Shown here piece after piece: positions 1 to 19,362 of a DNA stretch of 21,062 nucleotides; within the stretch, counting starts at the first letter, position 1, and every line of letters begins with the position of its first letter. The notes under the pieces were generated by a model, which was not told the DNA's origin, ran no database searches, and saw nothing but the letters and a program-made list of their open reading frames with translations. The stretch comes from a virus: UHGV virus genome UHGV-1684449; one strand, 5' to 3'. The position numbers were made by a program, and so were the translations under genes.

Positions 1-144
1 ATTTAACATATTTTTGAGCACTTTTCTTTCACCCAATGGGTGAAAGCTGAATTTCGAAGGAATGCATATTTATCAAGGCTTTGATTATGCTTTTTGAAGT
101 ACTGACGTAGAATCTAGGAGTGAAATAACTCCCCTTAAAAGTTC

Positions 145-1196: not shown

Positions 1197-1528
1197 AGGC
1201 CATCCCATTCGCGCTGTTGTTCCTTTCTTCGATCGTTGTGGCCGACACCACTGTTTATCAGTGTGAAATGTCTGTAGCCGACGTTAAGAATGGCGCTCTT
1301 ACCGACGTCATAAAAGCACCATATGGAGCGATGGTCGTAGACAGCGGCGACCAGTTCTATGTTGTGCGTGACGATCGAGTATTGTCATCCCCATATCTCA
1401 CAAACCGTAATGGCAAATTAACCGGCGTCGGAGAAGACCACTTCGTATACAACAAATACAAGGGCTTCTATGGCGTTCACGCTTCTCAGCAAAGCTACCT
1501 TTTCGATGACTGCAAGGAGGTTGGATAA
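1193..1528 (+). CDS. Secreted or periplasmic small protein with N-terminal signal peptide (111 aa)
   Basis: N-terminus MKAIPFALLFLSSIVVA-DTT looks like a Sec signal peptide with an AxA-like cleavage site. Two cysteines in the mature part. GAGGTGG ribosome-binding site upstream. Confidence 0.6.
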   Translation: MKAIPFALLFLSSIVVADTTVYQCEMSVADVKNGALTDVIKAPYGAMVVDSGDQFYVVRDDRVLSSPYLTNRNGKLTGVGEDHFVYNKYKGFYGVHASQQSYLFDDCKEVG

Positions 1529-1740
1529 TGGCATTAACACTGGCAGGTCTGGAAATCGAGAAAACAAGCGGATACTGGCGTGCTAAGGGTTTCAAGCAGC
1601 CTGGCATTCTTGAGCGTCTGGAACGTGAAGATGGGTATATCGTCCACCAGCGGCGTGAATGGCGTATGTACGATCCAGAAACAGGAAAACTGACTACAAA
1701 AGCCGGAACACTTTGGGGTCTGTTGAAGAAAATACACTAA
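1528..1740 (+). CDS. Hypothetical protein (70 aa)
   Basis: ATG overlaps the upstream stop (TAATG). Strong AAGGAGG ribosome-binding site at 1514-1520. Confidence 0.5.
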   Translation: MALTLAGLEIEKTSGYWRAKGFKQPGILERLEREDGYIVHQRREWRMYDPETGKLTTKAGTLWGLLKKIH

Positions 1741-1787: not shown

Positions 1788-2320
1788 ACCGCTGACAGCA
1801 TACACAATCAATTACCGCTGATAGCATATCGAGAGTTTATCTCACCGCTCACAGCATACTTTACTCGATTTTTTACCGCTGACAGCATACTTAAGACATT
1901 GCATGAATAATGTGTACCGGTATGGGTATAACCAGAACAAAATTACCGCTGGCAGCATACGAAGGTCTGACATATACCATTAATTACCGCTGATAGCATA
2001 TCCAAACAAAAATTCCTCAATAAAACACCGCTGACAGCATACGTTCTATCAGGGAGTAGCAGGCAATAAATGCCTTTCACTACAAGCAATCAGCGCAATA
2101 GCAATAGAATGTTAGTGAGCGCAAACCTATATGGAATGCACTCTTCGAGGTTAGTAACCACTGGGGAGGTATGACAGAGCATTGAGTGGTGATAGATGAT
2201 TTACCGCTCACAGCATACGTTCATCTCACTATACCGCTGGTAGCATATCTTTAACCGTTCACAGCATACTTTTCAGAAAAATAGCCGCTGATAGCATACA
2301 TTTCACCGCTGACAGCATAT
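1788..2320 (+). repeat. Iteron array, 12 copies of a 16-bp direct repeat (consensus ACCGCTGACAGCATAC), incA-like
   Basis: Copies at 1788-1803, 1814-1829, 1844-1859, 1875-1890, 1945-1960, 1986-2001, 2027-2042, 2203-2218, 2233-2248, 2254-2269, 2284-2299 and 2305-2320, all in the same orientation. Variants include ACCGCTGATAGCATAT and ACCGCTCACAGCATAC. Start-to-start spacings are mostly 21, 30-31 or 41 bp. The last copy abuts the stop codon of the initiator gene. Confidence 0.85.
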
Positions 2321-3414
2321 CAAAGCAGTTTGAGACTATTGGAAAGGATCTCAATCATCTTGATATTTTCAGGCGTCAAATTCTGCGAAAGTTCGGTTAT
2401 CTTGTTGATAATGTTCTGTTTGGCATCAATTTCCCCAGCTTTCTCATCTGGTTTTTTGGGTTCGATGTCTTCAGGTTTTGGCGGTGCGACTTTGAGTTTT
2501 GGATTGCGGCTGTGAATCTGGATATAGATCGACCGCCCACGCTTAATCTCGCTGTATTCGAGATAGCCCAAATCTTGGAGAGCTTTTAAGCCGTTACGTA
2601 TAGTCTGATTCTGCGAGCTGACATTCCTGCTACTCAAATTGAGTCGCGCACGCAATCGAGCAAGCGATACCGGCGCAGGCTTGGTTGGAAGACTTTCGAT
2701 GAAGGTGTACAGAGCCTGTGCTGTTTCTTTGCGTGGTAGCTTATTGATAACCTTTAACTGCAAAAGAACCTTATGGTCAAAGCGATATAGTTCGGCCAGC
2801 TTCGGTTCTGCATAGAACACCACCGTATCTTTCTGCTCGTTGTAGTCCACGCTATTGATGAGGTGCACCATCAGAAGCGAGATCTTGTTAGAGCCGTCGA
2901 CGTTCTTTTCTTCATACGTTCTCTGGAAAGACAGAGTTGTACGCATGATCTTCAAAAGACTGTTTGTAAGCCGGTCGCGGAGTGTTTTGCGGATCTGTGA
3001 CGATGGATAGCCACAAAACTTCGCAAATTTCGTGATGCTTAACTCGACACGACCGTTAGGTTCGCCGTATTCTGCCAGCGAACGCACAACGCCCACCCAC
3101 GTTTTGAAATCATGATCCATGTCGAGACGAGGACCGGTTATCTTGATATCGGAATAGCCTTCAGAACGGGCTACTTCGAGCTGGACAAGCTCCTTTGAAG
3201 CATCGATCTCATTTGGCTTGTTACGTTTACTGTATTTTGTTCCCTTAAGCGTGGGGACGAACAACCCCAGTCGCATCAACGCAATTGGTTGGACTGTATT
3301 GTTGCTATTAGGGACAAGTTCCCCTGTGTACAATTCAAGGGAACCTTCTTCAAAGTTGTCGATGTTATCTTCTACTTCTTTGTTATTTTTACCTTTTTTA
3401 TTTTTTGTGGACAT
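2320..3414 (-). CDS. repA: Plasmid-type replication initiator, RepA-like (P1 RepA / Rep_3-like), 364 aa
   Basis: Minus-strand ORF flanked on both sides by iterons. Segments NSNNTVQPIALMRLGLFVP, DIKITGPRLDMDHDFKTW, ALYTFIESLP and IHSRNPKLK match my recollection of P1 RepA-family initiators. Start chosen at the internal ATG (3412-3414, MSTKNKKG...) because the track's longer 404-aa ORF runs through the upstream iterons. Confidence 0.75.
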   Translation of the reverse strand: MSTKNKKGKNNKEVEDNIDNFEEGSLELYTGELVPNSNNTVQPIALMRLGLFVPTLKGTKYSKRNKPNEIDASKELVQLEVARSEGYSDIKITGPRLDMDHDFKTWVGVVRSLAEYGEPNGRVELSITKFAKFCGYPSSQIRKTLRDRLTNSLLKIMRTTLSFQRTYEEKNVDGSNKISLLMVHLINSVDYNEQKDTVVFYAEPKLAELYRFDHKVLLQLKVINKLPRKETAQALYTFIESLPTKPAPVSLARLRARLNLSSRNVSSQNQTIRNGLKALQDLGYLEYSEIKRGRSIYIQIHSRNPKLKVAPPKPEDIEPKKPDEKAGEIDAKQNIINKITELSQNLTPENIKMIEILSNSLKLL

Positions 3415-3434
3415 GTGGACACCTTTGTCATTCA

Positions 3435-3536
3435 ACCGCTGACAGCATACTTGATTTGCCGCTGACAGAATACCAAAAACAGTTGGCAGCATACGGTGAA
3501 CCGCTGACAGACTATCAATTACCGCTGACAGCATAC
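3435..3536 (+). repeat. Upstream iteron array, 5 copies of the same 16-bp repeat, origin/incC-like
   Basis: Copies at 3435-3450 (ACCGCTGACAGCATAC), 3458-3473 (GCCGCTGACAGAATAC), 3479-3494 (ACAGTTGGCAGCATAC), 3500-3515 (ACCGCTGACAGACTAT) and 3521-3536. Spacing is 23, 21, 21, 21 bp, about two helical turns. They sit directly upstream of the initiator start codon. Confidence 0.8.
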
Positions 3537-3576
3537 ATGAACATGACTTCAGACCAGTCGTGGCGCGGCTTACAGC

Positions 3577-3649
3577 GATCGGGGATCTTATTTGATCTAT
3601 ATAAGGATCTATCTATGGATCTCTTTATTAGGATCTATCCTGTGGATAT
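3577..3649. promoter_or_regulatory. Origin-like region: GATC cluster in AT-rich DNA plus a DnaA-box-like site
   Basis: Six GATC sites at 3577, 3584, 3594, 3606, 3618 and 3632 within about 60 bp, inside repeated GGATCTAT units. GATCTCTTTATTAG resembles the E. coli oriC 13-mer GATCTCTTATTAG. TGTGGATAT at 3641-3649 matches the DnaA box consensus TGTGGATAA at 8 of 9 positions. Confidence 0.6.
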
Positions 3650-3735
3650 GTGAATAATTAAAACAGGCATTTACTACCTTCGGCGCACCTGGTGGGTTAT
3701 CGTTGCCTCGGCTAACAATCACAGAAAAATGACAT

Positions 3736-4634: not shown

Positions 4635-5720
4635 ATGACTTTGCCATACGGCGTCATTTCTGACTGCCACTACCACAAATGGGATGCGTTCTCCACGACG
4701 AACGCTGAGGGGCTTAACTCCAGACTTGAAATACAGTTGGAAGCAACGAAAGAAGCAGCCATCGCCATGAAGAAGGCCGGTTGTACGTACATGTTGGTTG
4801 CCGGTGATACATTTCACGTCCGAGGAACTGTGTCCCCTTCTGTTTTGCATTACGTAACTGAAACGTACAAGTGGATTATCAACGAGCTTGATCTGACAGT
4901 AGTAATGCTGGCCGGTAATCACGATCTTGAAACCAACGATTCAGTATATAGCGCCAACGCAGCAGCATCGCTGAGTTCTATCGGCGTGGTAATCGTATGT
5001 GGCAAACGCCCACACTCAATAAAAATTGGTGATGTGACTGTCCACCTGATTAGCTGGCGTAACAATCATGCAGAGCTTATCTGCGATCTGAAAGCATTAC
5101 GTAAGAGCGTAGAAGGTGATAATCATGACGTTGTTATCCATACATCCATTAACAAAGCCATTCCAACAATGCCTGACGTCGGTATCGATGCGCAGGAGTT
5201 AAAGGATATCGGCTTTCGTCTCGTGCTTAGTGGGCATTACCACAACCACAAAGAGGTCATTCCTGGAGTTATCAGTGTCGGTGCGCTGACCCATCAAAAT
5301 TGGGGAGATGTTGGATCTCTGGCTGGTTACATGATCGTAAACCCGGACGGCAGTTTCAGTCACTACGAAACCAGTGCGCCTAAATTCATTAACCTGGAAG
5401 ATTATGTTGCCGATGACCAAATTCGCGGCAACTACGTGCGTTTCCGCGCCGTAATTGAGAACGATGAAGAAGGCATTAAGTACCAGAACATCCTCAAAAC
5501 AATGGGTGCAAAAGGTGTCGTGTGCAACTTCATCCGTAAGTCATCAATGATGGAAGGGACAGCAAGCACAACGGAAACCAGCAAAATCGATAGCCTGGGA
5601 GAGTCGGTATCTGCTTATTGCAAGATTGTCCACGATACTGACGGCGGATTTGATCTAAGCAAGTTGGATATTTTGTGTCAGGAAATCCTCACCGAAGCGG
5701 AGAGTTCGGAGGCTGTGTGA
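4635..5720 (+). CDS. sbcD: SbcD/Mre11-like metallophosphoesterase nuclease subunit
   Basis: Calcineurin-like phosphoesterase motifs: SDCHYH near the N-terminus, GDTFH, GNHD and GHYH. It sits immediately upstream of an SbcC/Rad50-like ATPase gene. Preceded by the leader AAAGGAAAAACACATG. Confidence 0.8.
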   Translation: MTLPYGVISDCHYHKWDAFSTTNAEGLNSRLEIQLEATKEAAIAMKKAGCTYMLVAGDTFHVRGTVSPSVLHYVTETYKWIINELDLTVVMLAGNHDLETNDSVYSANAAASLSSIGVVIVCGKRPHSIKIGDVTVHLISWRNNHAELICDLKALRKSVEGDNHDVVIHTSINKAIPTMPDVGIDAQELKDIGFRLVLSGHYHNHKEVIPGVISVGALTHQNWGDVGSLAGYMIVNPDGSFSHYETSAPKFINLEDYVADDQIRGNYVRFRAVIENDEEGIKYQNILKTMGAKGVVCNFIRKSSMMEGTASTTETSKIDSLGESVSAYCKIVHDTDGGFDLSKLDILCQEILTEAESSEAV

Positions 5721-5761
5721 GGCAAAGTCGTTATGGGAGCTTTCGAGACTTTGCCATCACG

Positions 5762-5953
5762 ATGAAAAGACTTGAACGAGGCCAGACGGTGATGTTTCAC
5801 AAGCCCTACCCGCCACAAGGAAATCCCGTAGCGTTTTATCTTGGAAGGTTAACCAGAAAAGGCGTATTGAGGCGCAGATCCTTCCCGGCGCATACGGAGT
5901 TCAGATTGAAAGAAGGTCAAAAGCTAACACACGGTATCAAAGGTGTTATATGA
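5762..5953 (+). CDS. Small basic hypothetical protein (63 aa), candidate
   Basis: Fills the 230-bp gap between the nuclease and ATPase genes. The track ORF 5675..5953 begins inside the upstream gene, so it is trimmed here to the first ATG after the sbcD-like stop (5762). No obvious Shine-Dalgarno sequence. Confidence 0.25.
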   Translation: MKRLERGQTVMFHKPYPPQGNPVAFYLGRLTRKGVLRRRSFPAHTEFRLKEGQKLTHGIKGVI

Positions 5954-7866
5954 AGTTTTTAAAGCTCCAGGTTGAGAATTTTATGGCTATCGCCAGCGCG
6001 GAGGTCGAGTTAGATCAGCGTGGTTTAGTGCTCATTCAGGGTGTTAATAGTGATGATAGTTCCGCATCAAGTAATGGCTCTGGAAAGTCAACGCTAATGA
6101 ATAGCCTGATGTGGTGTCTTTATGGCGAAACAGCTCATGGTGTGAAGGGTGACGATGTGTTGTCTACCGACCATGAAAAGAACTGTCGTGTTGCAGTAAC
6201 CATCGAGGATGAAGGCAAGAGATATGCGATCATTCGTCACCGTAAACACAAAGAGTTCAAAAATCGGCTTATCGTTCGTGGTGAAGACGGCGATATGACG
6301 AAAGGCAAAGATGCGCTGACGCAAGAGTTCGTCGAGCGTCTGATCGGTGCATCTAAAGAGGTTTTCATGGCTTCCATCTATGCGAGCCAAGAAGCTATGC
6401 CAGATTTACCTGGAATGTCCGACAAAAACCTCAAAACCATCGTAGAAGAAGCCGCTGGCGTTGACAGACTGACACGCGCCTACGCTATTGCTCGTGAGCG
6501 AGCTAATGCAGCTGCCGCACGTATGGATGTGGTTAAAACCAAATTGGAGTCGACAATCTCGACCATTGAGGCAACACAGTCAGAAATTGAGTCAGCGAAA
6601 GCCTCCTCTGAATCATGGGAGCAAGAGCGTTCTAAACGTTATGACGATGCCCTGGCTGGGCTGGCCAGTGCCGAAGTTGAGTTAACGGAAGTTGAACTTG
6701 AGATCCGCACTCTTCCCGAACAGATACGTGATACCGAGAAGGCAATCGAAAGTGAGCGCAAAAAGTTAGCCTCAAAAGAAGAACATGACGCCAAGTTGCT
6801 CAAAGTTCGTGGTGCGATAACTGATATTCGGGCAAGCATCAAAGCTACAGAAAATAGTCAGGCTGATGCAATGAACCGCGCGCGTAATTTTAAGACCAAA
6901 GCAGAAGAGGTTGGTACTAAAGTGGGATCACCATGCCCTACTTGTGGCAAAGCCTACTGCGAAGAAGATCTATCAACGGTGAAGGAGAATTTCATTGAAC
7001 AAGCACGTCAGGAAATTGGTCAGGCGAAGACACTTGCAGAGGCAATGGCTAAACACAAAACGAATCTTGAGAAAGCGTTAAGCATTGAGTCTGCCCTTGT
7101 TAAAACGACACCTGATGTAACGGCTATCATTGCCCGGATTGAAGAGCTTACGAAACAACTCTCATCTTTGCGTCATCGTGAGAAGGAGGTTGTTGCTATT
7201 GAGTCTCTTGTGACTCGTGCTCGTACTGAGGTCGATCGTATATCAAAAGAGATTAATCCGTTTATTGCTCTTATCGCCAGACACGAAGATAACCTGGTAT
7301 CCAGTAAGTCTACCTTCAAGTCCTTAAAAGATGAGTTGAAGGCTATTCAGGAACAAACGTTGCTATTGGAAAAAGCTCGTCAGGTCTACTCTCCTGCCGG
7401 GGTGCGTTCTCATATTTTGACGTCTGTTACGCCTTTCCTGAATACACGCACTGCCGAGTATCTCAATACGTTGTCTGACGGGAATATTACTGCTGAGTGG
7501 TCGACGATGGATGTCACTAAAAAAGGTGAGTATCGCGACAAATTCAACATTAGTGTGCAGAAGAAAGGTTCAAGTAAGTCGTTCCAGACCCTCTCTGGTG
7601 GTGAGAAGCGGAAAGTTCGCATTGCGTGTTCTTTGGCATTGCAGGATCTGGTTAGTAACCGGGCGAGTAAAAACATCGATTTGTTTATCGGCGACGAAAT
7701 TGACGATGCACTCGATACAGCCGGTCTTGAACGCCTCATGGGTATTCTGGAGTCCAAAGCTCGCGAGCGAGGTACTGTGCTGATTATCTCCCATAAAGAG
7801 ATGAAGTCATGGTTCCGGGAAACTATTACGCTGGAAGTTAAAGAGGGGCGCAGCTATGTCGTTTAA
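5950..7866 (+). CDS. sbcC: SbcC/Rad50-like SMC-family ATPase
   Basis: N-terminal Walker A (SNGSGKST), long central coiled-coil-like region with a CPTCG zinc-hook motif, C-terminal ABC signature LSGGEKRK and Walker B LFIGDEIDDALD. Confidence 0.8.
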   Translation: MKFLKLQVENFMAIASAEVELDQRGLVLIQGVNSDDSSASSNGSGKSTLMNSLMWCLYGETAHGVKGDDVLSTDHEKNCRVAVTIEDEGKRYAIIRHRKHKEFKNRLIVRGEDGDMTKGKDALTQEFVERLIGASKEVFMASIYASQEAMPDLPGMSDKNLKTIVEEAAGVDRLTRAYAIARERANAAAARMDVVKTKLESTISTIEATQSEIESAKASSESWEQERSKRYDDALAGLASAEVELTEVELEIRTLPEQIRDTEKAIESERKKLASKEEHDAKLLKVRGAITDIRASIKATENSQADAMNRARNFKTKAEEVGTKVGSPCPTCGKAYCEEDLSTVKENFIEQARQEIGQAKTLAEAMAKHKTNLEKALSIESALVKTTPDVTAIIARIEELTKQLSSLRHREKEVVAIESLVTRARTEVDRISKEINPFIALIARHEDNLVSSKSTFKSLKDELKAIQEQTLLLEKARQVYSPAGVRSHILTSVTPFLNTRTAEYLNTLSDGNITAEWSTMDVTKKGEYRDKFNISVQKKGSSKSFQTLSGGEKRKVRIACSLALQDLVSNRASKNIDLFIGDEIDDALDTAGLERLMGILESKARERGTVLIISHKEMKSWFRETITLEVKEGRSYVV

Positions 7867-9251: not shown

Positions 9252-11567
9252 ATGATAAGCATCGTAAAACGTAACGGCCAAACAGAGCCGTTATCCGAAG
9301 AAAAATACAACCGCGTCGTAATGTATGGCGTAGAAGGCATTCGTGGTGTAAGCGCATCCGCTGTAGCAATGGGAGCTGCGGCCAGCATTTTTGATGGGAT
9401 TACCACCAGCCAGTTGCATGAGGCTTTGGTTAAATCTGCCGCTGATTTGATCTCACCAGAAGCACCAAATTACTCACAGGTGGCTGCCCGCCTGAACATT
9501 TTTAAAATCCGCAAAGATGCCTTCGGTCGTTACGACTATCCGAACTTCTACCAACACATTGTCAAGAACGTTAACAAGGGCGTTTATGACAAGGATTTGC
9601 TGACACATTATTCGTTTGAAGAGATCGAAGAACTCGGCAATTACATTAAGCCGAAACGTGACGATCTTTTTGGCTATGCAGCTACGGTGCAGTTGCAAAG
9701 CAAATACCTCGTTCAAAACCGTGTTACTGGTGAGATTCATGAGGGGCCGCAACATATCTATATGCTGGTAGGCATGTGTCTGTTCCAGAATTGGGAAGAC
9801 GACTGCGCTGGCAAAACACGTATGGAGATGGTCAAAGGTTTCTATGACGTTACAAGTACGTTCAAACTGTCTCTGCCCACACCAATCATGGCCGGCGTCC
9901 GTACTCCAACCCGTCAGTTCTCCAGTTGTGTGCTGATTGAGTCTGGCGATAGTCTGAAAGGGATTAGTGCAGCTTCAGCCGCAATTATCGACTACGTTTC
10001 ACGTCGTGCTGGAATTGGTATTGGTTTTGGCCGTATCCGTGCGCTGGGCAGCGAGATCCGCAATGGTGAAGCCACCCATACCGGAGTTATTCCATTCCTG
10101 AAGCATTTCCAGACGGCTGTTAAATCTTGTTCGCAAGGTGGTGTTCGTGGTGGCGCAGCAACAGCGTTTTACCCGATCTGGCATCTTGAAGTTGAAAGTC
10201 TGCTGGTGGTGAAAAATAACCGTGGTATTGATGAAAACCGCGTTCGCCATCTTGATTACGGCGTCATGAGTAACCGTCTAATGTACCGTCGACTCGTCAG
10301 AAGCGAGAACATCACTCTGTTCAGCCCGCATGATGTGCCTGATATGTACGAAGCCTTCTTCACAGACCAGGATCTGTTTGAAAAGCTGTACCATAAATAC
10401 GAAGCCGATGATTCAATTCGCAAGAAGTCAGTGTCTGCCATTGAGCTGTTCTCATCTCTGATGCAGGAACGAGCGTCCACGGGCCGAATTTATATTGCGA
10501 ACGTCGATCATATTAATGAGCATGGCGCTTTCATTCCTGCTCTTGCACCTGTCCGCCAGTCAAACCTGTGCATGGAGATCACTCTACCCACTCGTCCACT
10601 GGCATTTACCGACGACCCGAACGGTGAGATCGCGCTATGCACTTTATCCGCTTTTAACCTCGGAGCCATCCGTTCACTGGAGTCTCTTAAAGAGGTGGCG
10701 TTCTATGCCGTTGCTGCACTGGATTCGTTACTGGATTATCAAGACTATCCGATGGAGGCAGCCGCAGTGCCTGCCAAAGCTCGTCGTAGCTTGGGAATTG
10801 GTGTAACCAACTTTGCTTATTACCTGGCAAAGAATGGCGTTCGTTATTCTGATACCGCTGGCAATAAACTGGTGCATGAAACGTTCGAAGCTATCCAGTA
10901 TTACCTTCTTGATGCCAGCTGCCGACTTGCTGAAGCAAAAGGTGAGTGTGACTGGTTTGAGCAGACCAAGTACGCAATTGGTCAGTTGCCGATCGACCAT
11001 TACCGTTCTTCATTAGACGAAAGTGGCGAAACCAACTTTGAGTTAAAGATGCCGTGGGAAGAACTGCGTGAACGTATTGCAAAATACGGCCTTCGCAACT
11101 CCACACTGACGGCACAAATGCCATGCGAGACTTCCAGCCAGATCACTAATTCCACCAACGGCATCGAACCGCCTCGTGGCCCGGTGTCGGTGAAATCTTC
11201 TAAGGACGGCATCGTTAAGATGGTCGTGCCTGAGTTTGAAAAACTGAAGGAACAGTATGAATACCTGTGGGATATGCCGGACAACCGCGGCTATCTGACA
11301 AAGGTGGCGATCATCCAGAAGTTCTTTGACCAGGCTATTTCAGCCAATACCAACTATGACCCTTCTCGCTTTGAAGGCGATAAAGTCCCAATGATGACGC
11401 TACTGTCAGATTTGCTTCTCGCCTACAAGATGGGAGTTAAAACGCTTTACTACCACAACACCAGAGATGGGGCAGGAAAGCGTGATGACGACGAACCGCA
11501 GAATCCACTGACGCAAGCTGTAGCCGTCGAGCCAGAAGATGAGTGCGACGGAGCCTGCAAAATCTGA
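9252..11567 (+). CDS. nrdA: Ribonucleoside-diphosphate reductase alpha subunit (class Ia)
   Basis: 771 aa with high similarity along its length to E. coli NrdA as I recall it, including LPTPIMAGVRTPTRQFSSCVLIE, SCSQGGVRGGAATAFYP, VRQSNLCMEI, ISANTNYDPSRF and the C-terminal CDGACKI redox tail. Confidence 0.95.
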   Translation: MISIVKRNGQTEPLSEEKYNRVVMYGVEGIRGVSASAVAMGAAASIFDGITTSQLHEALVKSAADLISPEAPNYSQVAARLNIFKIRKDAFGRYDYPNFYQHIVKNVNKGVYDKDLLTHYSFEEIEELGNYIKPKRDDLFGYAATVQLQSKYLVQNRVTGEIHEGPQHIYMLVGMCLFQNWEDDCAGKTRMEMVKGFYDVTSTFKLSLPTPIMAGVRTPTRQFSSCVLIESGDSLKGISAASAAIIDYVSRRAGIGIGFGRIRALGSEIRNGEATHTGVIPFLKHFQTAVKSCSQGGVRGGAATAFYPIWHLEVESLLVVKNNRGIDENRVRHLDYGVMSNRLMYRRLVRSENITLFSPHDVPDMYEAFFTDQDLFEKLYHKYEADDSIRKKSVSAIELFSSLMQERASTGRIYIANVDHINEHGAFIPALAPVRQSNLCMEITLPTRPLAFTDDPNGEIALCTLSAFNLGAIRSLESLKEVAFYAVAALDSLLDYQDYPMEAAAVPAKARRSLGIGVTNFAYYLAKNGVRYSDTAGNKLVHETFEAIQYYLLDASCRLAEAKGECDWFEQTKYAIGQLPIDHYRSSLDESGETNFELKMPWEELRERIAKYGLRNSTLTAQMPCETSSQITNSTNGIEPPRGPVSVKSSKDGIVKMVVPEFEKLKEQYEYLWDMPDNRGYLTKVAIIQKFFDQAISANTNYDPSRFEGDKVPMMTLLSDLLLAYKMGVKTLYYHNTRDGAGKRDDDEPQNPLTQAVAVEPEDECDGACKI

Positions 11568-11572
11568 CATAT

Positions 11573-11600
11573 GGTGGGGGATATCCCCACCTTCTCTTTG
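11573..11600 (+). terminator. Hairpin plus T-rich tract between nrdA and nrdB (terminator or attenuator-like)
   Basis: Stem GGTGGGG / CCCCACC (11573-11579 / 11585-11591) followed by TTCTCTTTG. Confidence 0.4.
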
Positions 11601-11671
11601 ATTTGTAAACCTTGTTTAAACAAATAAGATAACAACTTGTTTAAACACATCAATAAGCAAAAGGAAAACAC

Positions 11672-12814
11672 ATGTCATATTCAACGTTCCGTTTGGGTGC
11701 TAATGATGCAACCAAAGAGCCTATGTTCCTCGGACAATCTGTCAACGTGGCACGTTACGATCAGCAAAAATACCGTGATTTTGAAAAGTTGATTGAACGT
11801 CAATTGTCTTTCTTCTGGCGGCCGGAAGAAGTTGATATTTCGAGCGATCGTATCGACTTCAACACGAAGCTGCGGGACCACGAACGTCACATTTTTCTGA
11901 GCAATCTCCGTTATCAAACGTTACTCGATTCAGTTCAGGGACGTAGCCCAAATGCAACGCTGCTGCCGCTTATCTCTATTCCTGAACTGGAAACGTGGGT
12001 TGAAACATGGTCTTTCTCTGAGACTATCCATAGCCGCAGCTACACCCACATTATTCGTGGCATGGTGGACGATCCGAGCATTGTTTTTAACGGTATTGTT
12101 ACGGATGAAGAAATCATCAACCGAGCGATCAGTATCTCTGCTGAATATGACAGGCTTTATGGGATGACCTGCGAGCGCCAGTCGTTAGGTGAGAAAGAGT
12201 TTGAACGTCTGTACGTAAATGAATATGGCTGGGAGCCATACCCTTTGCACCGTCAGCTTTTCCGCACGTTGGTGTCCATTAATGCGCTTGAGGCGATCCG
12301 TTTCTATGTAAGTTTTGCATGTACGTTTGCCTTTGGCGAACGGAAGTTGCTTGAGGGCAACACCAAAATTATGCGCTTTATTGCCCGTGATGAAGCTCTG
12401 CATTGCGAAGGAACTGAACGCATGATCCGCTTCATGCGTACCGGTCGCGAAGGTTTATTGTGGAAAGAGATTGCTGCTGATGAAGAAAACGTCATTTACG
12501 ACACCATGAAATCAGTCGCCGAACAAGAAATGAACTGGGCAGACTATCTCTTCAAAGACGGTTCGATGATTGGTTTAAACGCGGATATTCTGAAGACCTA
12601 TGTAAAATACCGCACCAATCTGGCTATGAATCGTCTTGGCCTGAAGGCTTTATTTCCAGAAGTTACCACAGATCCGCTGGTCTGGATGAACAAGTGGTTG
12701 TTAACCGACACACTGCAAATTGCACCACAAGAGGCAGAGCAAAGCACATATCTGGTAGGTCAGATCGATTCTACCGTGGATAAGGCTTCTCTAAGCCAGT
12801 TTGCAGACCTGTAA
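11672..12814 (+). CDS. nrdB: Ribonucleoside-diphosphate reductase beta subunit (class Ia)
   Basis: 380 aa, very similar to E. coli NrdB as recalled: [68 protein letters not shown] and RDEALH. Preceded by the leader AAAAGGAAAACACATG. Confidence 0.95.
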
Positions 12815-12891
12815 ACCGATACAAAGCATTATGTGGCCTGGCAACGCTGGGCCACAATGGATCACAAGAATTAAGAAGGAACAAAACTAGC

Positions 12892-13761
12892 ATGAACTTT
12901 ACCAAACTGACTGACCACCTGAAACTTGCCACCGATCGACTCATTGGATTTAAGCCAGAACCATATGAGTTGCATGAAGGTCATGGTGTAGCTACTGAAA
13001 GTATTTACAAGATGGTCGATCAGTTTCATGAACTCTTCCAGCATCCGAGACGCGTTATGCCGACACCAGAGCTGCTTCGTCTCCGTGCAAGCCTGATTCA
13101 TGAAGAAGCTGTAGTGGAAGGTATTCCAGCCGCAATGAATGGGGATATTGAGCAACTGCTGGATGCAATGGCCGACTTTTTATACGTTGGTGTTGGTACG
13201 ATGGTCGCCATCAAAGGTGGTATTTCTACCGGCATGACCTATTACACGCAGGAACAGAGCATTGATCGCTTTATGCAGACAATTTTTGTGCCTGGTAACA
13301 CTGTTTTCGATGATATGGCAATGCCATTTCAGGAAGCTCGTGAGGCGTCATGTATGCTCGAAGAGCTGGCAGATAAACTTGAGAACAAGACTGTTAAGGA
13401 TTCTGAGCTGATTCAGGAACTGCGCCGTGTAATGAACAAAATCTATGTGGCGTGCATGATGACCTATCGACTGGCTGATTTCCTCGGTATCAATGTCGTC
13501 GAGCTGGTTGGCGAAATTCATCGGTCCAACATGACAAAATTATGGCCTGCAGATGCCGAAGAGCGTCGCCATGCTGTGGCCAACTGCAAATACGACTCTT
13601 CTGACCTGGGATTTCGCCATGCTGATGGCACCGATAAGATGATCGGTTTTCGAATTTCCGATGGAAAGATTCTGAAGTCTCCAACCTATAGTGATGTCGA
13701 TTTATCCTCCTTTGTTGAGCAAGCTAAAGCCTCAGCAATGTACGGAATGATCAAAAAATAA
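12892..13761 (+). CDS. Putative MazG-like nucleoside triphosphate pyrophosphohydrolase
   Basis: HEEAVVEGI...DIEQLLDAMADFLYV is an E-x2-E ... E-x2-D pattern typical of all-alpha MazG/HisE-type pyrophosphatases. It lies within the nucleotide-metabolism cluster. Assigned from pattern only. Confidence 0.45.
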   Translation: MNFTKLTDHLKLATDRLIGFKPEPYELHEGHGVATESIYKMVDQFHELFQHPRRVMPTPELLRLRASLIHEEAVVEGIPAAMNGDIEQLLDAMADFLYVGVGTMVAIKGGISTGMTYYTQEQSIDRFMQTIFVPGNTVFDDMAMPFQEAREASCMLEELADKLENKTVKDSELIQELRRVMNKIYVACMMTYRLADFLGINVVELVGEIHRSNMTKLWPADAEERRHAVANCKYDSSDLGFRHADGTDKMIGFRISDGKILKSPTYSDVDLSSFVEQAKASAMYGMIKK

Positions 13762-13830
13762 TTGTAGGTAGTTATCTATCTGTGTATATTGCGTTGGCGC
13801 GTTAAATTTCTGAAACAACTATTCGTTTTT

Positions 13831-13856
13831 GGTGGCCTATGGCCACCATTTTTTTA
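13831..13856 (+). terminator. Rho-independent terminator
   Basis: Stem GGTGGCC / GGCCACC (13831-13837 / 13841-13847) with a TAT loop, followed by ATTTTTTTAT. Confidence 0.65.
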
Positions 13857-13932
13857 TCTATCTGGCCTTGTTCCCTCAATAAATGTAAACTCACTTAATT
13901 AATAAGTGGTTACTTATCTTTGTGAGGTTTTT

Positions 13933-15036
13933 GTGTCACTCCTTTTGAATCGTGAGCATACGAACGGTCAGGTAACAAACGCATCGTATGCAAAAGTTAT
14001 TGAGACGGTGCTTAAAAGCGGCGTGCAGGCTGATGATCGCACAGGCACTGGTACTTTAAGCACCTGCTACGTTCCCTCTTACTACATGCTTACTGGTGGG
14101 ACTGTGCCGCTTATTTCTGGAAAGGCGGTAAATCTTAAGCCACTGCTTGTCGAACTTGAGTGGTATCTGAAAGGCACGGGCAACATCCAATTTCTCAAGG
14201 ATAACGGCGTTAAGATTTGGGATGCATGGGCCGATGAGAATGGCGATTTGGGGCCGGTTTACGGTAAGCAGTGGCGTCGATGGGAAGATACCCGCATCGT
14301 GAGCCATAGTGAATATCTGAGCAAGATCGATACTTTCCGTGAACGCGGGTACAAAGTCGAGGGATACCTGGGTATCAGTGAAGATCGCGTAGTGCTGTCC
14401 CGTGAAATCGATCAGCTACAGCGTATTGTCGATACACTGCGCACGAACCCCACCGATCGTCGTATCATGCTTAACGCATGGAACGTAGGCGAGCTTGAGG
14501 ATATGAAACTGCCACCTTGCCACTTTGTCTTCTCTTTGTGGAGTCGTGAGCTTGATTTTGAAACCCGTTTAACGATGGCAACTGACATTGGTCTTCAACA
14601 CAGTCGCCTCGGTTATGAGTCTATCTACACCAAGATGCTATACGATCTGGAGATGGACGGCAGTGTTACTGAAACTGAACTGGATGAACTTGGAATCCCC
14701 AAACGCATCCTCAACTCCTGCCTCGTACAGCGTAGCGTAGACACTTTTGTTGGTATGCCATTCAATATTGCTGGCTATGGCATTCTCACTCATTTTCTCG
14801 CGAAGATTACGGGTCACATGGCCGGTGCATTTGTACATTTTGGCTTTGACGTGCATTTGTACAACAACCACATGGAAGGTGTGTGTGAGCTAATGAAACG
14901 ACAGGCTCCAGAGCATTCAGATCCGGTCGTTATTTTCCCTCATGAATGGTCTGAGCTGGATGATTTCAAATGGGACGATATTCTGATTCTTGGCTATGAC
15001 CCTCTACCGTGGATCAAGGTTCCAGTGGCGGTGTGA
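13933..15036 (+). CDS. thyA: Thymidylate synthase (ThyA family) with internal insertions
   Basis: Conserved ThyA motifs DRTGTGT, GPVYGKQWRRW, DRRIMLNAWNVGELEDMKLPPCH (catalytic Cys), QRSVD...PFNIAGY and the C-terminal GYDP...IKVPVAV. The track ORF begins at GTG 13906; I prefer the in-frame GTG at 13933 because GAGG at 13924-13927 gives a better ribosome-binding site. The start is uncertain. Confidence 0.85.
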   Translation: MSLLLNREHTNGQVTNASYAKVIETVLKSGVQADDRTGTGTLSTCYVPSYYMLTGGTVPLISGKAVNLKPLLVELEWYLKGTGNIQFLKDNGVKIWDAWADENGDLGPVYGKQWRRWEDTRIVSHSEYLSKIDTFRERGYKVEGYLGISEDRVVLSREIDQLQRIVDTLRTNPTDRRIMLNAWNVGELEDMKLPPCHFVFSLWSRELDFETRLTMATDIGLQHSRLGYESIYTKMLYDLEMDGSVTETELDELGIPKRILNSCLVQRSVDTFVGMPFNIAGYGILTHFLAKITGHMAGAFVHFGFDVHLYNNHMEGVCELMKRQAPEHSDPVVIFPHEWSELDDFKWDDILILGYDPLPWIKVPVAV

Positions 15037-15037
15037 T

Positions 15038-15451
15038 ATGGCAAGAGGTATGTATGTCTTATGCGAAATTGAAGGTGTGCTGGCAAATACCAGCCATCGT
15101 AAATCTGTATCTGACGCGGATGCAGGCCAGCTCATTGCCGGTGATGAACTCATTTTCCCCACCAGCCGTATGTTGCGTGGTTTTGCTCGCTCAGGGGCTG
15201 AAGTGGTGCTTATCAGTAGCCGCTCTGAAACTCTTGAAGCGCCCACTAAACGATGGCTGAAAGATTTTGGCGTTGATTACGACTGGCTTCATCTCGTACC
15301 GAATGGCACCAGTTATGAGAAGCATATTAAGCGCACATTAGCGGAGCATAAAGGCGATCTGCTTATCGCTGCGCTGGTGCACGATCCTCGACTCCGTGCC
15401 GCTTTAGCTGACTCTCATCATAGACCGGTCATCTATGAGGTGAGCAAATGA
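15038..15451 (+). CDS. Hypothetical protein, possibly a HAD-like phosphatase fold (137 aa)
   Basis: ORF between the thymidylate synthase and dihydrofolate reductase genes. YVLCEIEGVL resembles HAD motif I (hhhhDxDGxL) but with Glu at both Asp positions; VVLISSRS and GDLLIAALVHD could be motifs II and IV. Start trimmed to the first ATG after the thyA stop. Confidence 0.4.
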   Translation: MARGMYVLCEIEGVLANTSHRKSVSDADAGQLIAGDELIFPTSRMLRGFARSGAEVVLISSRSETLEAPTKRWLKDFGVDYDWLHLVPNGTSYEKHIKRTLAEHKGDLLIAALVHDPRLRAALADSHHRPVIYEVSK

Positions 15452-15924
15452 AGATGATAGCTGCTGTTGGCCGTAACTATGAGATCGGCATAGCGAACGA
15501 ACTGCCCTGGCGTTGTTCTACCGATCTGAAGCTATTTAAGAGACTCACCAAAAACGCCACTGTCGTTATGGGGCGTAAAACGATGGAAAGTCTCAAACGC
15601 CCTCTTCCAGAGCGTCATAACCTCGTTTTGACGCGCTCTCATGGCTTTGTACCAAATGGATTCTACCCTGCTGGTGTGGATGATGTGTTGCGATTACCAG
15701 AGCCTGTGTGGGTGATTGGCGGGGAACAAATTTACTCGCTATTCATGCCGCATGTTGAAGAGATTTGGCTCTCCCACATCGGCGTTGATGTGCCAAACGC
15801 CGATGCATTCTTCCCGGCAAGCATGATGCGTAATTTAGGCTTTGTGCCTGTTGAAACAGTTTTTACCCAACGAGCCAGCGAGGAAGAGCCTGGCTTTTCG
15901 CAGATCGTATACAGAAGGTCGTAA
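15448..15924 (+). CDS. folA: Dihydrofolate reductase
   Basis: 158 aa. MIAAVGRNYEIGIANELPW, VVMGRKTMESLKRPLPERHNLVLTR and VWVIGGEQIY match the DHFR family pattern (E. coli FolA: MISLIAALA...MPW, [34 protein letters not shown]). GAGGTG ribosome-binding site; start overlaps the upstream stop. Confidence 0.85.
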   Translation: MKMIAAVGRNYEIGIANELPWRCSTDLKLFKRLTKNATVVMGRKTMESLKRPLPERHNLVLTRSHGFVPNGFYPAGVDDVLRLPEPVWVIGGEQIYSLFMPHVEEIWLSHIGVDVPNADAFFPASMMRNLGFVPVETVFTQRASEEEPGFSQIVYRRS

Positions 15925-16568
15925 TGGATTACCGGATTGGGATCACTGGTGCTCAGGGCAGTGGGAAAACAACCCTGGCAAAATATATCGACAAACATTA
16001 CGGAATCCCTTACGTGGATGCTGGTGTCGGAAGTTTGATGAGCCGACTCGGTGTTCGAGTAGGTGAGTCTATGCCTCTATATGAGCGGCTTCAGATTCAA
16101 ATGGAAATAGCAAAGCATATAGAGCTACTTACGCGTGGTGTTGAAGGCTTTGTTATCGATCGCACACCTGCTGATGTTATGGCCTACACGTTGGATTTGG
16201 TCGGCCATACCAATGAAGATCGATGTATTGAGTTAGCCCTCGATATCGAAAAGTTTTGCCACAAAACTGCTATTTCAAACTTTAACGCCATTGCTGGCCT
16301 ACGCCCGGGGGTCGCTCTCTCAGAGCGAGATTACTTGCGGTCACAACGAGCATCATTAGACCGTCTGTATGTCGCTCGTATTGATGCGTTGATGTGCGGG
16401 GAACTGACAAAAATTCACCTGCATCCGCAAAGGGGGGATCTGCAAACCTTCGTCGTTTCCAACCGATATCGCACGGTTGAAGCAAGAGCCAGATCAGTGA
16501 TGAGAATGCTAGATAACGCTGTAGAAAAGATAGAAAACCGGTTCTGTGGCCGAGTGACCGTTCATTAG
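15924..16568 (+). CDS. P-loop NTPase, putative nucleotide or nucleoside kinase
   Basis: Walker A GITGAQGSGKTT at the N-terminus; size and genomic context are consistent with a dNMP kinase-like enzyme. Translationally coupled to the upstream gene (TAATG). Specific function not established. Confidence 0.4.
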   Translation: MDYRIGITGAQGSGKTTLAKYIDKHYGIPYVDAGVGSLMSRLGVRVGESMPLYERLQIQMEIAKHIELLTRGVEGFVIDRTPADVMAYTLDLVGHTNEDRCIELALDIEKFCHKTAISNFNAIAGLRPGVALSERDYLRSQRASLDRLYVARIDALMCGELTKIHLHPQRGDLQTFVVSNRYRTVEARARSVMRMLDNAVEKIENRFCGRVTVH

Positions 16569-16629
16569 AAATTGTTCGCCTCTTCGACATTGCGACAATA
16601 AAACTCTCAAAATGGGTTAAGGATAAAAA

Positions 16630-17049
16630 ATGTTTAGTGAAATGTTGCTTGAAGATGAACTGGATCGGAAAACAACAGAGGCTTTGATTCGTGTAGCGGA
16701 CGAACATTCCCGGTCGCTTATGAGCGATCGAGAGGCTCGCCTGGCTATTCGTGCCATATTCGAAACTGCGCAGGGGCTTGTTGGCGCACAAGTAGGTGAA
16801 GCCATTAACATCGCCATGTCTCAGTTCAGTGAAGACAGTAAAAAGCCTCTGTTTCCTATGCATTTGATGCTGGCTGGTGGCACGGTGCTTTATATCTCTG
16901 TTTGTCTGGATAGCAACCAAATCAATATTCTCAACACTGCGTCAGGTAAGTGGAAAGATCCGATTGTCTGTGAAACCAGTGAAGAAACTTTGAAAAAAGC
17001 GGCTCAATTTGTACGTAGCGCACTACTTAAGGGCGCTAAGAAGTTGTAA
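16630..17049 (+). CDS. Hypothetical protein (139 aa)
   Basis: ORF with an AAGGA ribosome-binding site. No family recognised. Confidence 0.5.
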   Translation: MFSEMLLEDELDRKTTEALIRVADEHSRSLMSDREARLAIRAIFETAQGLVGAQVGEAINIAMSQFSEDSKKPLFPMHLMLAGGTVLYISVCLDSNQINILNTASGKWKDPIVCETSEETLKKAAQFVRSALLKGAKKL

Positions 17050-17058
17050 GGAGTTCTG

Positions 17059-17616
17059 ATGACAACGATTGTTGCAGGCATCGATATCGAGTCTACGGGA
17101 CTGGATTTCCTTGCTGGTCATAAAATTATTGAAATCGCAATTACCCGCTATGAACTGGAGACACAGAGACATATTGATAGTCTGGAGATGCGTTTTAACC
17201 CTCGCAGAAACATAGATCCGAAAGCTCAAGCCGTTCATGGCATTTCATTAGAACAGCTCGCAGCTGAACCTTTGTTGTCAAATCATGCCAGCGAAATTGG
17301 CGCTTATATGGGGGCATGTAGTGCGTGGATTGCTCATAACGGCGAAGCGTTTGATATACCATTTATTCGACACGAGTTTTCAGGGTATGGAGTAAGACTG
17401 CCAGACGTTCCCGTTATAGATACTATGTTATCGGGATTGTGGGCCACAGAAGACGGTAAACGTCCTCGCCTTGAAGAATTGGCCTTCTCTCTTGGCTTTA
17501 TATACGATCATGCCAAAGCACATAGTGCCTTATATGACACAAACTTAATGATGCAATGCTTCTTTAAGGCACGTAATAAATACGGATTTTTTAAATTACC
17601 CTCTGAAATTGTGTAA
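17059..17616 (+). CDS. DnaQ-like 3'-5' exonuclease (DEDDh family)
   Basis: Exo I GIDIESTG, Exo II HNGEAFDIPF and Exo III HSALYDT motifs. AAGGAG ribosome-binding site. Confidence 0.75.
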   Translation: MTTIVAGIDIESTGLDFLAGHKIIEIAITRYELETQRHIDSLEMRFNPRRNIDPKAQAVHGISLEQLAAEPLLSNHASEIGAYMGACSAWIAHNGEAFDIPFIRHEFSGYGVRLPDVPVIDTMLSGLWATEDGKRPRLEELAFSLGFIYDHAKAHSALYDTNLMMQCFFKARNKYGFFKLPSEIV

Positions 17617-18768: not shown

Positions 18769-19362
18769 ATGATTGCAGCCGAAAAAATCAAACAGCGAAA
18801 GCGCGACAACTCTCTTCGTGACCTCTGGAGAACACCTGATTGGCTGTTTTCTGCCATTCAACGTTATCTTGGAGTGACATTTGATGTTGACGTTGCCTGC
18901 AACAAGGACAATGCAAAGCTGCCTATTTTCATAGGCGTTGAGCGCGATGCTTTGAAATCTGAATGGGGGCAGCCAGGTACAATTGCCTTCCTCAATCCAC
19001 CCTACTCCAAAATCTCCCCCTGGATTGATGCGGCTATACGTGAGCAGGCTCGCGGAGTTACAACAGTGATGCTAATTCCTCAATCCCTCGATACAAAGTG
19101 GTATGAGCGTGCAACAGAGTATGCGAATGAGACGATTATTCTGTCTGGTGGCCGCGTTGCGTTTGTCGAGCCTGACGTCAATTTGGGTCAGGTAGAAGTA
19201 AACATCAACCCCGGTGGCAGTATGCTCGTTGTTTTTCGAGGGTTTTGTCAGGACGCTGGGCACTCTATAAGCAAGATCCCTTTGGACGTCATGAAAAGTC
19301 TGGGAGGGTATGATCCTGCGAATGTGATCAGGAAAAAAAGACCATCAAAGAAGGCTGCTTAG
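18769..19362 (+). CDS. DNA N6-adenine methyltransferase (phage Dam-type family)
   Basis: Catalytic motif FLNPPYS (NPPY) and N-terminal LWRTPDWLF, typical of small phage N6-adenine methyltransferases. Target sequence not determinable from the sequence. Confidence 0.7.
   Translation: MIAAEKIKQRKRDNSLRDLWRTPDWLFSAIQRYLGVTFDVDVACNKDNAKLPIFIGVERDALKSEWGQPGTIAFLNPPYSKISPWIDAAIREQARGVTTVMLIPQSLDTKWYERATEYANETIILSGGRVAFVEPDVNLGQVEVNINPGGSMLVVFRGFCQDAGHSISKIPLDVMKSLGGYDPANVIRKKRPSKKAA

Follow-up and report, generated by a model that had tools for sequence, protein, structure and literature searches.

RepFIB replicons of the F/P307 type carry iteron clusters on both sides of the rep gene. In phage P1, for which the curated annotation AF234172 served as our reference, the incA array abuts the repA stop codon, and the replicon also contains five incC iterons at 22/21/21/21-bp intervals, five Dam sites and a DnaA site. 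An earlier description of pECOH89 calls it a phage-like plasmid and reports RepA, parA and parB on it; plasmids of its kind are typed as IncFIB(H89-PhagePlasmid), a label in use in at least 25 papers, and IncFIB(AP001918) plasmids are found in isolates that carry them. The publication on the Klebsiella IncpKPHS1 replicon gave the number of iterons downstream of repA as only four (PMC6735626). A detailed account of the origin analyzed here was not found in the literature on the SSU5 or pHCM2 iterons, nor did the literature searched on the lineage yield a functional test of RepA–iteron binding, of Dam, DnaA or chaperone dependence, or of the negative role of the downstream array.

The window, i.e., the whole stretch of 21,062 nucleotides analyzed here, comes from the virus genome UHGV-1684449. 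Its segment 1749-3657 is very probably the plasmid-prophage replicon of an E. coli phage-plasmid of the pECOH89/p09EL50 type (SSU5 supergroup). Judged by sequence comparison, it is an orthologue-level relative of the P1 oriR–repA–incA replicon and of the RepFIB family. The replicon was already known, since plasmid-typing tools catalogue it as IncFIB(H89-PhagePlasmid). What was observed directly is the anatomy of the locus, the homology of the protein, that of the origin core at the nucleotide level, and the occurrence of the element as a circular plasmid on which no other replicon is typed. The features are as follows.

1749-1772, no strand assigned: bidirectional hairpin with a 9-bp stem and 6 G-C pairs, terminator-like on both strands
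1788-2320, plus strand: incA-like copy-control array, 12 iterons that all point the same way as those of the origin
2320-3414, minus strand: repA initiator gene, ATG at 3414, TGA at 2322-2320, 364 aa plus stop
3415-3434, minus strand: short repA leader with the Shine-Dalgarno sequence AAGGTG (3425-3420), 5 nt before the ATG
3435-3536, plus strand: origin iterons (incC-like), five copies at 23/21/21/21-bp spacing
3554-3587, no strand assigned: GC-rich origin-core block CCAGTCGTGGCGCGGCTTACAGCGATCGGGGATC, nearly identical in P1 oriR
3577-3635, no strand assigned: AT-rich stretch with six GATC (Dam) sites, set in repeated heptamers of the GGATCTA type
3641-3657, minus strand: two tandem DnaA boxes, ATATCCACA (3641-3649) and TTATTCACA (3649-3657), at the outer origin edge

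Seventeen copies of the 16-mer iteron ACCGCTGACAGCATAC, all on the plus strand, flank the minus-strand repA gene, twelve of them at 1788-2320 and five at 3435-3536. A search of the whole window for the pattern CCGCTGACAGCATA, allowing up to 3 mismatches and compared with 100 shuffles, returned 18 matches against 1.56 ± 1.37 expected; none of the shuffles got to 18. Seventeen of the matches correspond to the copies named in the sequence-only reading, and the direct repeats it had placed upstream (five) and downstream (twelve) of the initiator gene were thus all recovered as same-strand copies. The 18th match, a weak inverted iteron-like site inside repA (3068-3081, 3 mismatches), was within chance expectation and was rejected. 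The origin iterons start at 3435, 3458, 3479, 3500 and 3521, which confirmed the 21-23 bp distances proposed for the copies upstream of the start codon. The downstream copies start at 1788, 1814, 1844, 1875, 1945, 1986, 2027, 2203, 2233, 2254, 2284 and 2305, the intervals being 26, 30, 31, 70, 41, 41, 176, 30, 21, 30 and 21 bp. As claimed, this array ends at the stop codon: its last iteron (2305-2320) overlaps the repA stop by 1 nt. The suggestion that the iteron spacings approximate whole helical turns held for 11 of the 15 intervals and failed for those of 26, 70, 176 and 23 bp.

Five iterons at about 21 bp were present in all six family members aligned, and in the alignments those of the window keep the register of the P1 incC iterons. 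Beyond them, the origin core (3554-3657) can be matched base by base to P1 oriR. The GATC sites (3577, 3584, 3594, 3606, 3618 and 3632; six in about 60 bp) form the densest group in the window, six in 62 bp being reached by none of 2000 shuffles. The G+C content over 3575-3660 is 34%, and the GATC-rich, AT-rich stretch is presumed to be the unwinding and methylation-sensing region. The five annotated Dam sites of P1 fall at or next to GATC sites of the window, the fourth across a gapped stretch, and the tandem DnaA boxes coincide in the alignment with the 18-bp site annotated for DnaA binding in P1 oriR. A DnaA box and a GATC cluster had been predicted at the origin and both were found, with a second DnaA box lying just past the end coordinate given originally. 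Conservation with P1 is about 80% in the host-factor module (DnaA boxes, Dam sites and GC-rich block), whereas the Rep–iteron specificity module has fully diverged.

The repA gene had been called the sole minus-strand gene in the window, and it alone is annotated on the minus strand across the equivalent of the window in a 99% identical plasmid. A weak DnaA-box-like sequence, GTGTCCACA, overlaps its start codon (3421-3413). At the same position the Klebsiella relative has GTATCCACA, and P1 and other relatives carry TATCCACA boxes between the iterons and repA. The consensus promoter scan at its default threshold gave no minus-strand promoter. From a relaxed scan and homology to P1 PrepA we inferred two candidates on the minus strand, TTGGTA-N18-AAGTAT (3476-3447), at a position homologous to the annotated PrepA, and TTGATA-N19-TATGCT (3518-3488). 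Both are weak, with 7-9 of 12 consensus matches and spacers of 18-19 nt; by analogy with P1, an autoregulated repA promoter probably lies inside the origin iterons. Two annotation anomalies were seen in public records of this region: the RefSeq RepA is 40 codons too long, its extension crossing the iterons, and in one GenBank phage record two iterons are annotated as attL and attR.

The protein is a homologue of P1 RepA. BLASTP aligned it to P1 RepA with 46% identity over 278 aa (E 3e-86), and tblastn gave 43.5% identity to P1/P7 repA (E 2e-64), 47.9% to SSU5 RepA and 85% to the Klebsiella pKPHS1-type protein. The Pfam domain PF01051 Rep3_N (WH1 domain) was matched with 37.5 bits against a cutoff of 22.4, no family match was returned by the NCBIfam profiles, and the 477 homologues, where a source gives them a name, are called RepB family, RepA or RepFIB. 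The profile search proposed earlier thus placed the protein among the Rep_3/RepA initiators. A sequence search of the PDB yielded nothing at E <= 1, so the fold was examined via a structure model. The AF2 model, of moderate confidence (mean pLDDT 68.8, pTM 0.48), predicts a disordered N-terminus (1-45), the winged helices WH1 (about 68-210) and WH2 (about 214-303) and, after a disordered linker (308-329), a C-terminal helical hairpin (331-363). Its best PDB matches were domains 2-3 of RctB (2e-7), RepE (2z9o and 1rep; 1.8e-5) and a Rep WH1 domain, with TM-scores to RepE and RctB of only 0.34-0.51. The model therefore resembles RepE/RctB and is consistent with the two winged-helix domains expected.

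The comparison with P1 supported the claim of an oriR/repA/incA layout. In both replicons tandem DnaA boxes are followed by GATC sites, a GC-rich block, five iterons, repA and a second array abutting its stop codon, and the spacing classes are the same, 21-22 bp between the origin iterons, 30-31 and 40-41 bp between those of the control array. The iteron itself is unlike that of P1, as had also been stated (GTATGCTGTCAGCGGT here versus GATGTGTGCTGGAGGGAAA in P1). The control array has 12 iterons, against 9 in P1; all are direct, while the P1 copies occur in both orientations, and a 160-bp spacer lies inside the array. The leader is about 20 nt long compared with about 57 nt, clear right-hand DnaA boxes are absent from it, and RepA is longer by about 12 N-terminal and about 55 C-terminal residues. 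Finally, parAB–parS does not follow the array and the phage backbone is SSU5-like, unrelated to Punavirus. These differences from P1 are minor.

RepFIB replicons encode proteins of the same family, and the C-terminal linker and helical tail, absent in P1 RepA, are common to both. Nevertheless, proteins of the 'RepB family/RepFIB RepA' group are about 45-55% identical to this RepA, the co-residence of IncFIB(AP001918) plasmids in the same isolates points to a distinct specificity, and the replicon studied here is carried on a tailed-phage genome. The SSU5/pLF82/pHCM2-type replicon occupies the same genomic slot, between a cra-like gene and a 214-aa ORF, and has the same origin-core design with five origin iterons. 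However, its RepA is only about 48% identical (tblastn; PMC3999498), its iteron is AACCACTGTAGAGAGTAG, its downstream array has both orientations and it possesses an extra upstream repeat cluster. The relationship of the two amounts to a replicon swap in an otherwise similar backbone. The IncpKPHS1 replicon of Klebsiella phage-plasmids (pKPHS1, pJN2-26) shares an 85% identical RepA, the iteron consensus, five origin iterons and the direct orientation of all copies; it differs in having 8 downstream iterons versus 12 and a non-homologous spacer.

The sequence-only reading had pointed to a phage-plasmid lifestyle, and the whole window indeed proved 99-100% identical to phage-plasmids of the pECOH89/p09EL50 type, E. 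coli plasmids of about 110 kb represented by more than 120 complete circular records, which places it in the SSU5 supergroup. In all three records examined (p09EL50, pECOH89 and pWP4-S18-ESBL-07_2) the sole listed replicon was rep_cluster_488. Near-identical genomes were also deposited as phages (PhiR41_1 and CMS-2020a, 99.3-99.6% identity to the window), the replicon heads a large DNA-metabolism block (SbcCD-like, NrdAB, ThyA, DHFR, exonuclease, Dam), and pECOH89 additionally encodes dnaE and dnaG; all this would suit a lytic (vegetative) phage origin, or an origin that serves both the lytic role and plasmid maintenance. The gene for the element's own Dam-family methylase lies at 18769-19362. 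We consider such a function improbable, as the homologous systems of known function (P1 oriR, RepFIB) are all low-copy plasmid-maintenance replicons, the element occurs stably as a plasmid on which no other replicon is typed, and a negative-control array of 12 iterons would limit initiation, contrary to the needs of lytic amplification.

The downstream array is bipartite, with seven distal copies (1788-2042) and five proximal ones (2203-2320) split by the iteron-free spacer (2043-2202). Its sequence is 100% identical to that of pECOH89 and its length is the same in 120 of 122 plasmid records. The idea that the spacer hides a conserved functional element was dropped: the ORFs in it are short and unconvincing, and the Klebsiella relative has not conserved it. 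Next to the array a cra-like gene of 70 aa runs convergently (stop at 1740), with small hypothetical genes beyond it, and the terminator-like hairpin sits between this gene and the distal array end. No parA–parB–parS operon was found directly downstream of the array; pECOH89 has its parA and parB genes elsewhere. Searches of the whole window with Rfam at gathering thresholds and with a tRNA scan gave no matches, so the replicon shows no sign of antisense or regulatory RNAs. Among the relatives, the number of downstream iterons is 12 here, 9 in PhiR41_1, through a clean 87-bp deletion of three iterons, and 8 in Klebsiella.

The all-direct, bipartite arrangement might act as a fast-evolving copy-number dial, in which recombination between iterons would alter how many control iterons there are and thereby shift the phage-plasmid copy number, a proposal we regard as rather unlikely. 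In pECOH89-type elements an ISEcp1–blaCTX-M-15 cassette is inserted about 1.7 kb away, and if the proposal were true its dosage would shift, leading to unstable resistance levels. That the array is instead a second origin, or a centromere/partition site for another protein, is most improbable: the missing adjacent par operon, unlike in P1, makes a nearby cis-acting stability site conceivable, and the bipartite, all-direct structure is unlike P1 incA, but the repeats share their 16-mer with the origin iterons and would therefore be bound by RepA, no DnaA boxes, GATC cluster or AT-rich core adjoin the array, P1 incA occupies the same position, and repeat numbers varying among viable relatives are expected of a tunable control rather than of an essential origin.

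For the low-copy plasmid replicon that we favour, the mode of action would follow P1, and autonomous replication, autorepression, handcuffing and Dam dependence are all expected by homology. RepA monomers would bind the five origin iterons and host DnaA the tandem boxes, upon which the fully Dam-methylated AT-rich stretch (3577-3635) would open and the host replisome would load for theta replication. After replication, hemimethylated GATC sites would delay re-firing by SeqA-type sequestration. RepA bound to the origin iterons would occlude its own promoter, giving autorepression, and the 12 downstream iterons would keep the copy number low by titration of RepA and by pairing with the iterons of the origin (handcuffing). 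The clade-specific iteron would set a specificity and an incompatibility group separate from P1, F RepFIB and the SSU5/pLF82-type replicon.

The practical value of these results lies in annotation rather than in discovery: origin, iterons and control array are mapped to the base for a type of replicon that is widespread among the phage-plasmids of clinical E. coli and Shigella, blaCTX-M-15 being present on some. The extended RefSeq RepA and the attL/attR labels placed on iterons are exposed as systematic annotation errors. The current understanding of iteron replicons is unaltered. The locus is an example of modular origin evolution, in which a conserved host-factor module is joined to a diverged Rep–iteron module, and the diverged Rep–iteron specificity fits the sharing of one cell by pECOH89-type and F-type RepFIB plasmids.

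A search of the 21-kb window with the 16-bp iteron CCGCTGACAGCATA (up to three mismatches) returned 18 matches against 1.56 ± 1.37 expected, a count attained in none of 100 shuffles. Seventeen of them were found on the plus strand in two clusters (12 + 5), confirming the claim of the sequence-only reading that 17 copies flank the minus-strand initiator gene repA. On the rep strand the iteron showed high information content over GTATGCTGTCAGCGGT, with 10 positions invariant among the 17 copies. The main features are as follows.

Features of the replicon and its flanks
1528-1740, plus strand: cra-like gene (70 aa), convergent on the control array
1749-1772, bidirectional: terminator-like hairpin bounding the control array
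starts 1788, 1814, 1844, 1875, 1945, 1986, 2027, 2203, 2233, 2254, 2284, 2305, plus strand: control-array iterons (n = 12)
ATG 3414, TGA 2322-2320, minus strand: repA (364 aa)
starts 3435, 3458, 3479, 3500, 3521, plus strand: origin iterons (n = 5)
3577-3635: GATC cluster, six sites within 60 bp, outside the five upstream iterons
3641-3649 and 3649-3657: tandem DnaA boxes (n = 2), beyond the GATC cluster
4635-7866 and 9252-17616, plus strand: same-strand DNA-metabolism block downstream of the replicon (SbcD-like metallophosphoesterase, SbcC/Rad50-like ATPase, NrdA, NrdB, MazG/PRA-PH-like protein, thymidylate synthase, DHFR, kinase-like P-loop protein and 3'-5' exonuclease)

The array had been said to end at the repA stop codon, and its final iteron indeed shares one base with this codon. 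Spacings close to whole helical turns, proposed in the same reading, held for 11 of the 15 intervals but not for those of 26, 70, 176 and 23 bp. The DnaA box and GATC cluster were also recovered, although the second DnaA box (3649-3657) falls past the end first assigned to the replicon. The six-GATC cluster is the densest in the window and was attained in none of 2000 shuffles. As previously noted, repA stands alone on the minus strand: in a plasmid of 99% identity, the region corresponding to the window has no other gene annotated on that strand. An inverted iteron-like site, TCGCTGGCAGAATA, lies inside repA (3068-3081, minus strand, three mismatches) and pairs with the iteron at 1947-1961 as a 15-nt inverted repeat of 93% complementarity. 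It is also present in phage PhiR41_1, and chance alone could supply such a match in the window.

Judged from the sequence, the likeness of the origin to P1 oriR reflects homology and goes beyond layout. In the curated P1 record (AF234172, features taken in the window's orientation), nine incA iterons, the final one ending at the repA stop codon, and five incC iterons at 22/21/21/21 bp with PrepA within them enclose repA, accompanied by five Dam sites and an 18-bp DnaA site. Pairwise alignment of the two origins gave long identical runs, in which window 3554-3587 pairs with CCAGACGTGGCGCGGCCTGCAACGATCAGGGATC of P1. Each of the five GATC sites annotated in P1 fell at or adjoining a window GATC site, the fourth within a gapped stretch, whereas the sixth is found only in the window, P1 having GACC there. 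The tandem DnaA boxes aligned, and the five origin iterons were in register but differed in sequence. Six-way alignment of the window, Klebsiella phage pJN2-26, P1, Cronobacter JK004, SSU5 and RCS47 showed the host-factor module (DnaA boxes, GATC sites and GC-rich block) to be conserved and five origin iterons at ~21 bp to be present in all six, with a clade-specific iteron sequence. The P1 oriR/repA/incA layout suggested earlier is thus upheld by the RepA homology and the origin alignment, as is, by both alignments, the remark that the iteron sequence is unlike that of P1. SSU5 (JQ965645) carries a third iteron-like cluster (912-999), ~300 bp upstream of its five origin iterons and beyond the DnaA/GATC module, with no counterpart in the window.

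RepA matched P1 RepA at 46% identity over 278 aa (E 3e-86); tblastn identities were 43.5% to P1 and P7 RepA, 47.9% to SSU5 RepA and 85-87% to Klebsiella pKPHS1-type phage-plasmids. The 477 homologues retrieved by database search are, where named, RepB-family, RepA or RepFIB initiators. The profile search suggested by the sequence-only reading for the 364-aa protein detected Rep3_N (WH1) in Pfam at 37.5 bits (cutoff 22.4); NCBIfam, and the PDB searched by sequence alone, gave no match. The two winged-helix domains expected in the same reading correspond to two helix-plus-beta-hairpin modules in an AlphaFold2 model built with 30 homologues as input (mean pLDDT 68.8; core residues 70-305 mostly 75-90). 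Its top PDB matches were RctB domains 2-3 (E 2e-7), RepE (2z9o, 1.8e-5; 1rep) and an isolated Rep WH1 domain, with TM-scores that were modest (0.34-0.53), as expected from uncertain domain orientation. Most RepFIB-like homologues also have the linker and helical tail found at the C terminus (residues 308-363), which P1 RepA lacks.

The homology with P1 RepA, a Shine-Dalgarno AAGGTG read 5 nt upstream of the ATG and the PhiR41_1 annotation support 3414 as the true repA start. RefSeq/PGAP gives a 404-aa RepA (WP_001348683.1) starting at an ATG within the outermost origin iteron. The 40 additional residues (window 3415-3534; MLSAV...MLPTV...LSAA...CCQRL) are translated iterons, ATGCTGTCAGCGGT in every iteron reading as M-L-S-A-V, and this start was rejected. 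The leader from iterons to ATG is ~20 nt in the window versus ~57 nt in P1, retaining only a degenerate DnaA-like box that overlaps the start codon.

The P1 system is known from experimental work, including that of the Chattoraj and Austin laboratories. The mechanism proposed for the window was drawn from this system, in part through the AF234172 feature notes. By analogy, the five origin iterons would be occupied by RepA monomers and the tandem boxes by DnaA; full Dam methylation of its GATC sites would allow the AT-rich stretch to melt, and theta replication would begin with loading of the host replisome. Hemimethylated GATC sites would be sequestered after firing, RepA sitting on the origin iterons would block the repA promoter, and the downstream array would hold copy number down by titrating RepA and handcuffing the origin. 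The standard scan found no minus-strand promoter, but TTGGTA-N18-AAGTAT (3476-3447) is a candidate at the position homologous to P1 PrepA, and a relaxed scan gave a second, TTGATA-N19-TATGCT (3518-3488). The window also encodes its own Dam-family N6-adenine methyltransferase (18769-19362, plus strand; PF05869, E 1.5e-37); methylation of the origin, with its six clustered GATC sites, might not rely solely on host Dam.

That the downstream array is instead a centromere or a second origin is unlikely, since it is built of the same RepA sites as the origin, lacks DnaA boxes, a GATC cluster and an AT-rich module, and differs in repeat number among viable relatives. It contains 12 iterons in the window, nine in PhiR41_1 and eight in pJN2-26, the origin iterons remaining constant at five. 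The PhiR41_1 replicon (PV340561, 3042-3537) is otherwise 99.3% identical to that of the window but lacks three distal control iterons through an exact 87-bp iteron-to-iteron deletion (window 1788-1875), which shows that inter-iteron recombination alters the size of the control array. All 12 copies are direct, as in pJN2-26, whereas P1, SSU5, JK004 and RCS47 have downstream iterons in both orientations. A 160-bp spacer without iterons (2043-2202) divides the array 7+5; no recognisable element was found in it, and it is not conserved in the Klebsiella relative. The P1 par operon has no equivalent after the window array, which is bordered there by the terminator-like hairpin and the cra-like gene. 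Homologues of the convergent ORF at 1528-1740 are annotated 'putative Cre-associated protein' in SSU5 and pJN2-26; its final 41 nt are 100% identical to the 'P1 Cra protein' gene of phage Cyrano, and Pfam gave no match. In pJN2-26 (MZ779062), 20-bp repeats around repA (1378-1397 and 2648-2667) are labelled attR and attL in GenBank; both are RepA iterons, and the labels were rejected as an annotation artefact.

The window belongs to a pECOH89/p09EL50-type phage-plasmid of E. coli. Its replicon segment matched 92 plasmid records at 99-100% identity and 166 at ≥95%, the control array and that of pECOH89 (NC_023916) share 100% identity, and ~110 kb non-mobilizable E. coli plasmids are 99% identical to the whole window. 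PhiR41_1 and CMS-2020a, deposited as phages, are 99.3-99.6% identical. Membership of this type bears out the suggested phage-plasmid lifestyle. In the three records viewed in full (p09EL50, pECOH89 and pWP4-S18-ESBL-07_2), rep_cluster_488 is the single replicon. A lytic origin is likewise improbable: the design is geared to negative control, and the element is maintained as a plasmid in which no other replicon is typed. The DNA-metabolism block is typical of SSU5-group phage-plasmids. Window 1-118 is foreign to this backbone, related plasmids aligning from 119 onward; it is the ISEcp1 left end, with its terminal inverted repeat CCTAGATTCTACGTCAGTACTTCA at 95-118 (minus strand), and accounts for the ~4400 plasmid records matching the window. 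pECOH89 carries ISEcp1-blaCTX-M-15 at this position, ~1.7 kb from the control array.

pECOH89 was described in 2014 as a phage-like plasmid akin to SSU5, pHCM2 and pLF82; its RepA is identical to the p09EL50 protein and shares 48% identity with the one from pLF82 (PMC3999498). Such plasmids are typed IncFIB(H89-PhagePlasmid) (PMC12838234), a label that appears in at least 25 papers, and the group is well documented as living as phage-plasmids (PMC7969092; bioRxiv 10.1101/2025.09.12.675607). Because the iteron sequence is distinct, compatibility with P1 and F-type RepFIB is predicted, and isolates with both IncFIB(H89-PhagePlasmid) and IncFIB(AP001918) plasmids fit this prediction (PMC12838234). 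The replicon is already known: over 120 complete plasmid records contain its sequence, existing annotation names its gene as a plasmid initiator, and its typing name declares RepFIB kinship. A base-level map of this origin was not found in the searchable literature; the one given here is a useful annotation rather than a discovery.
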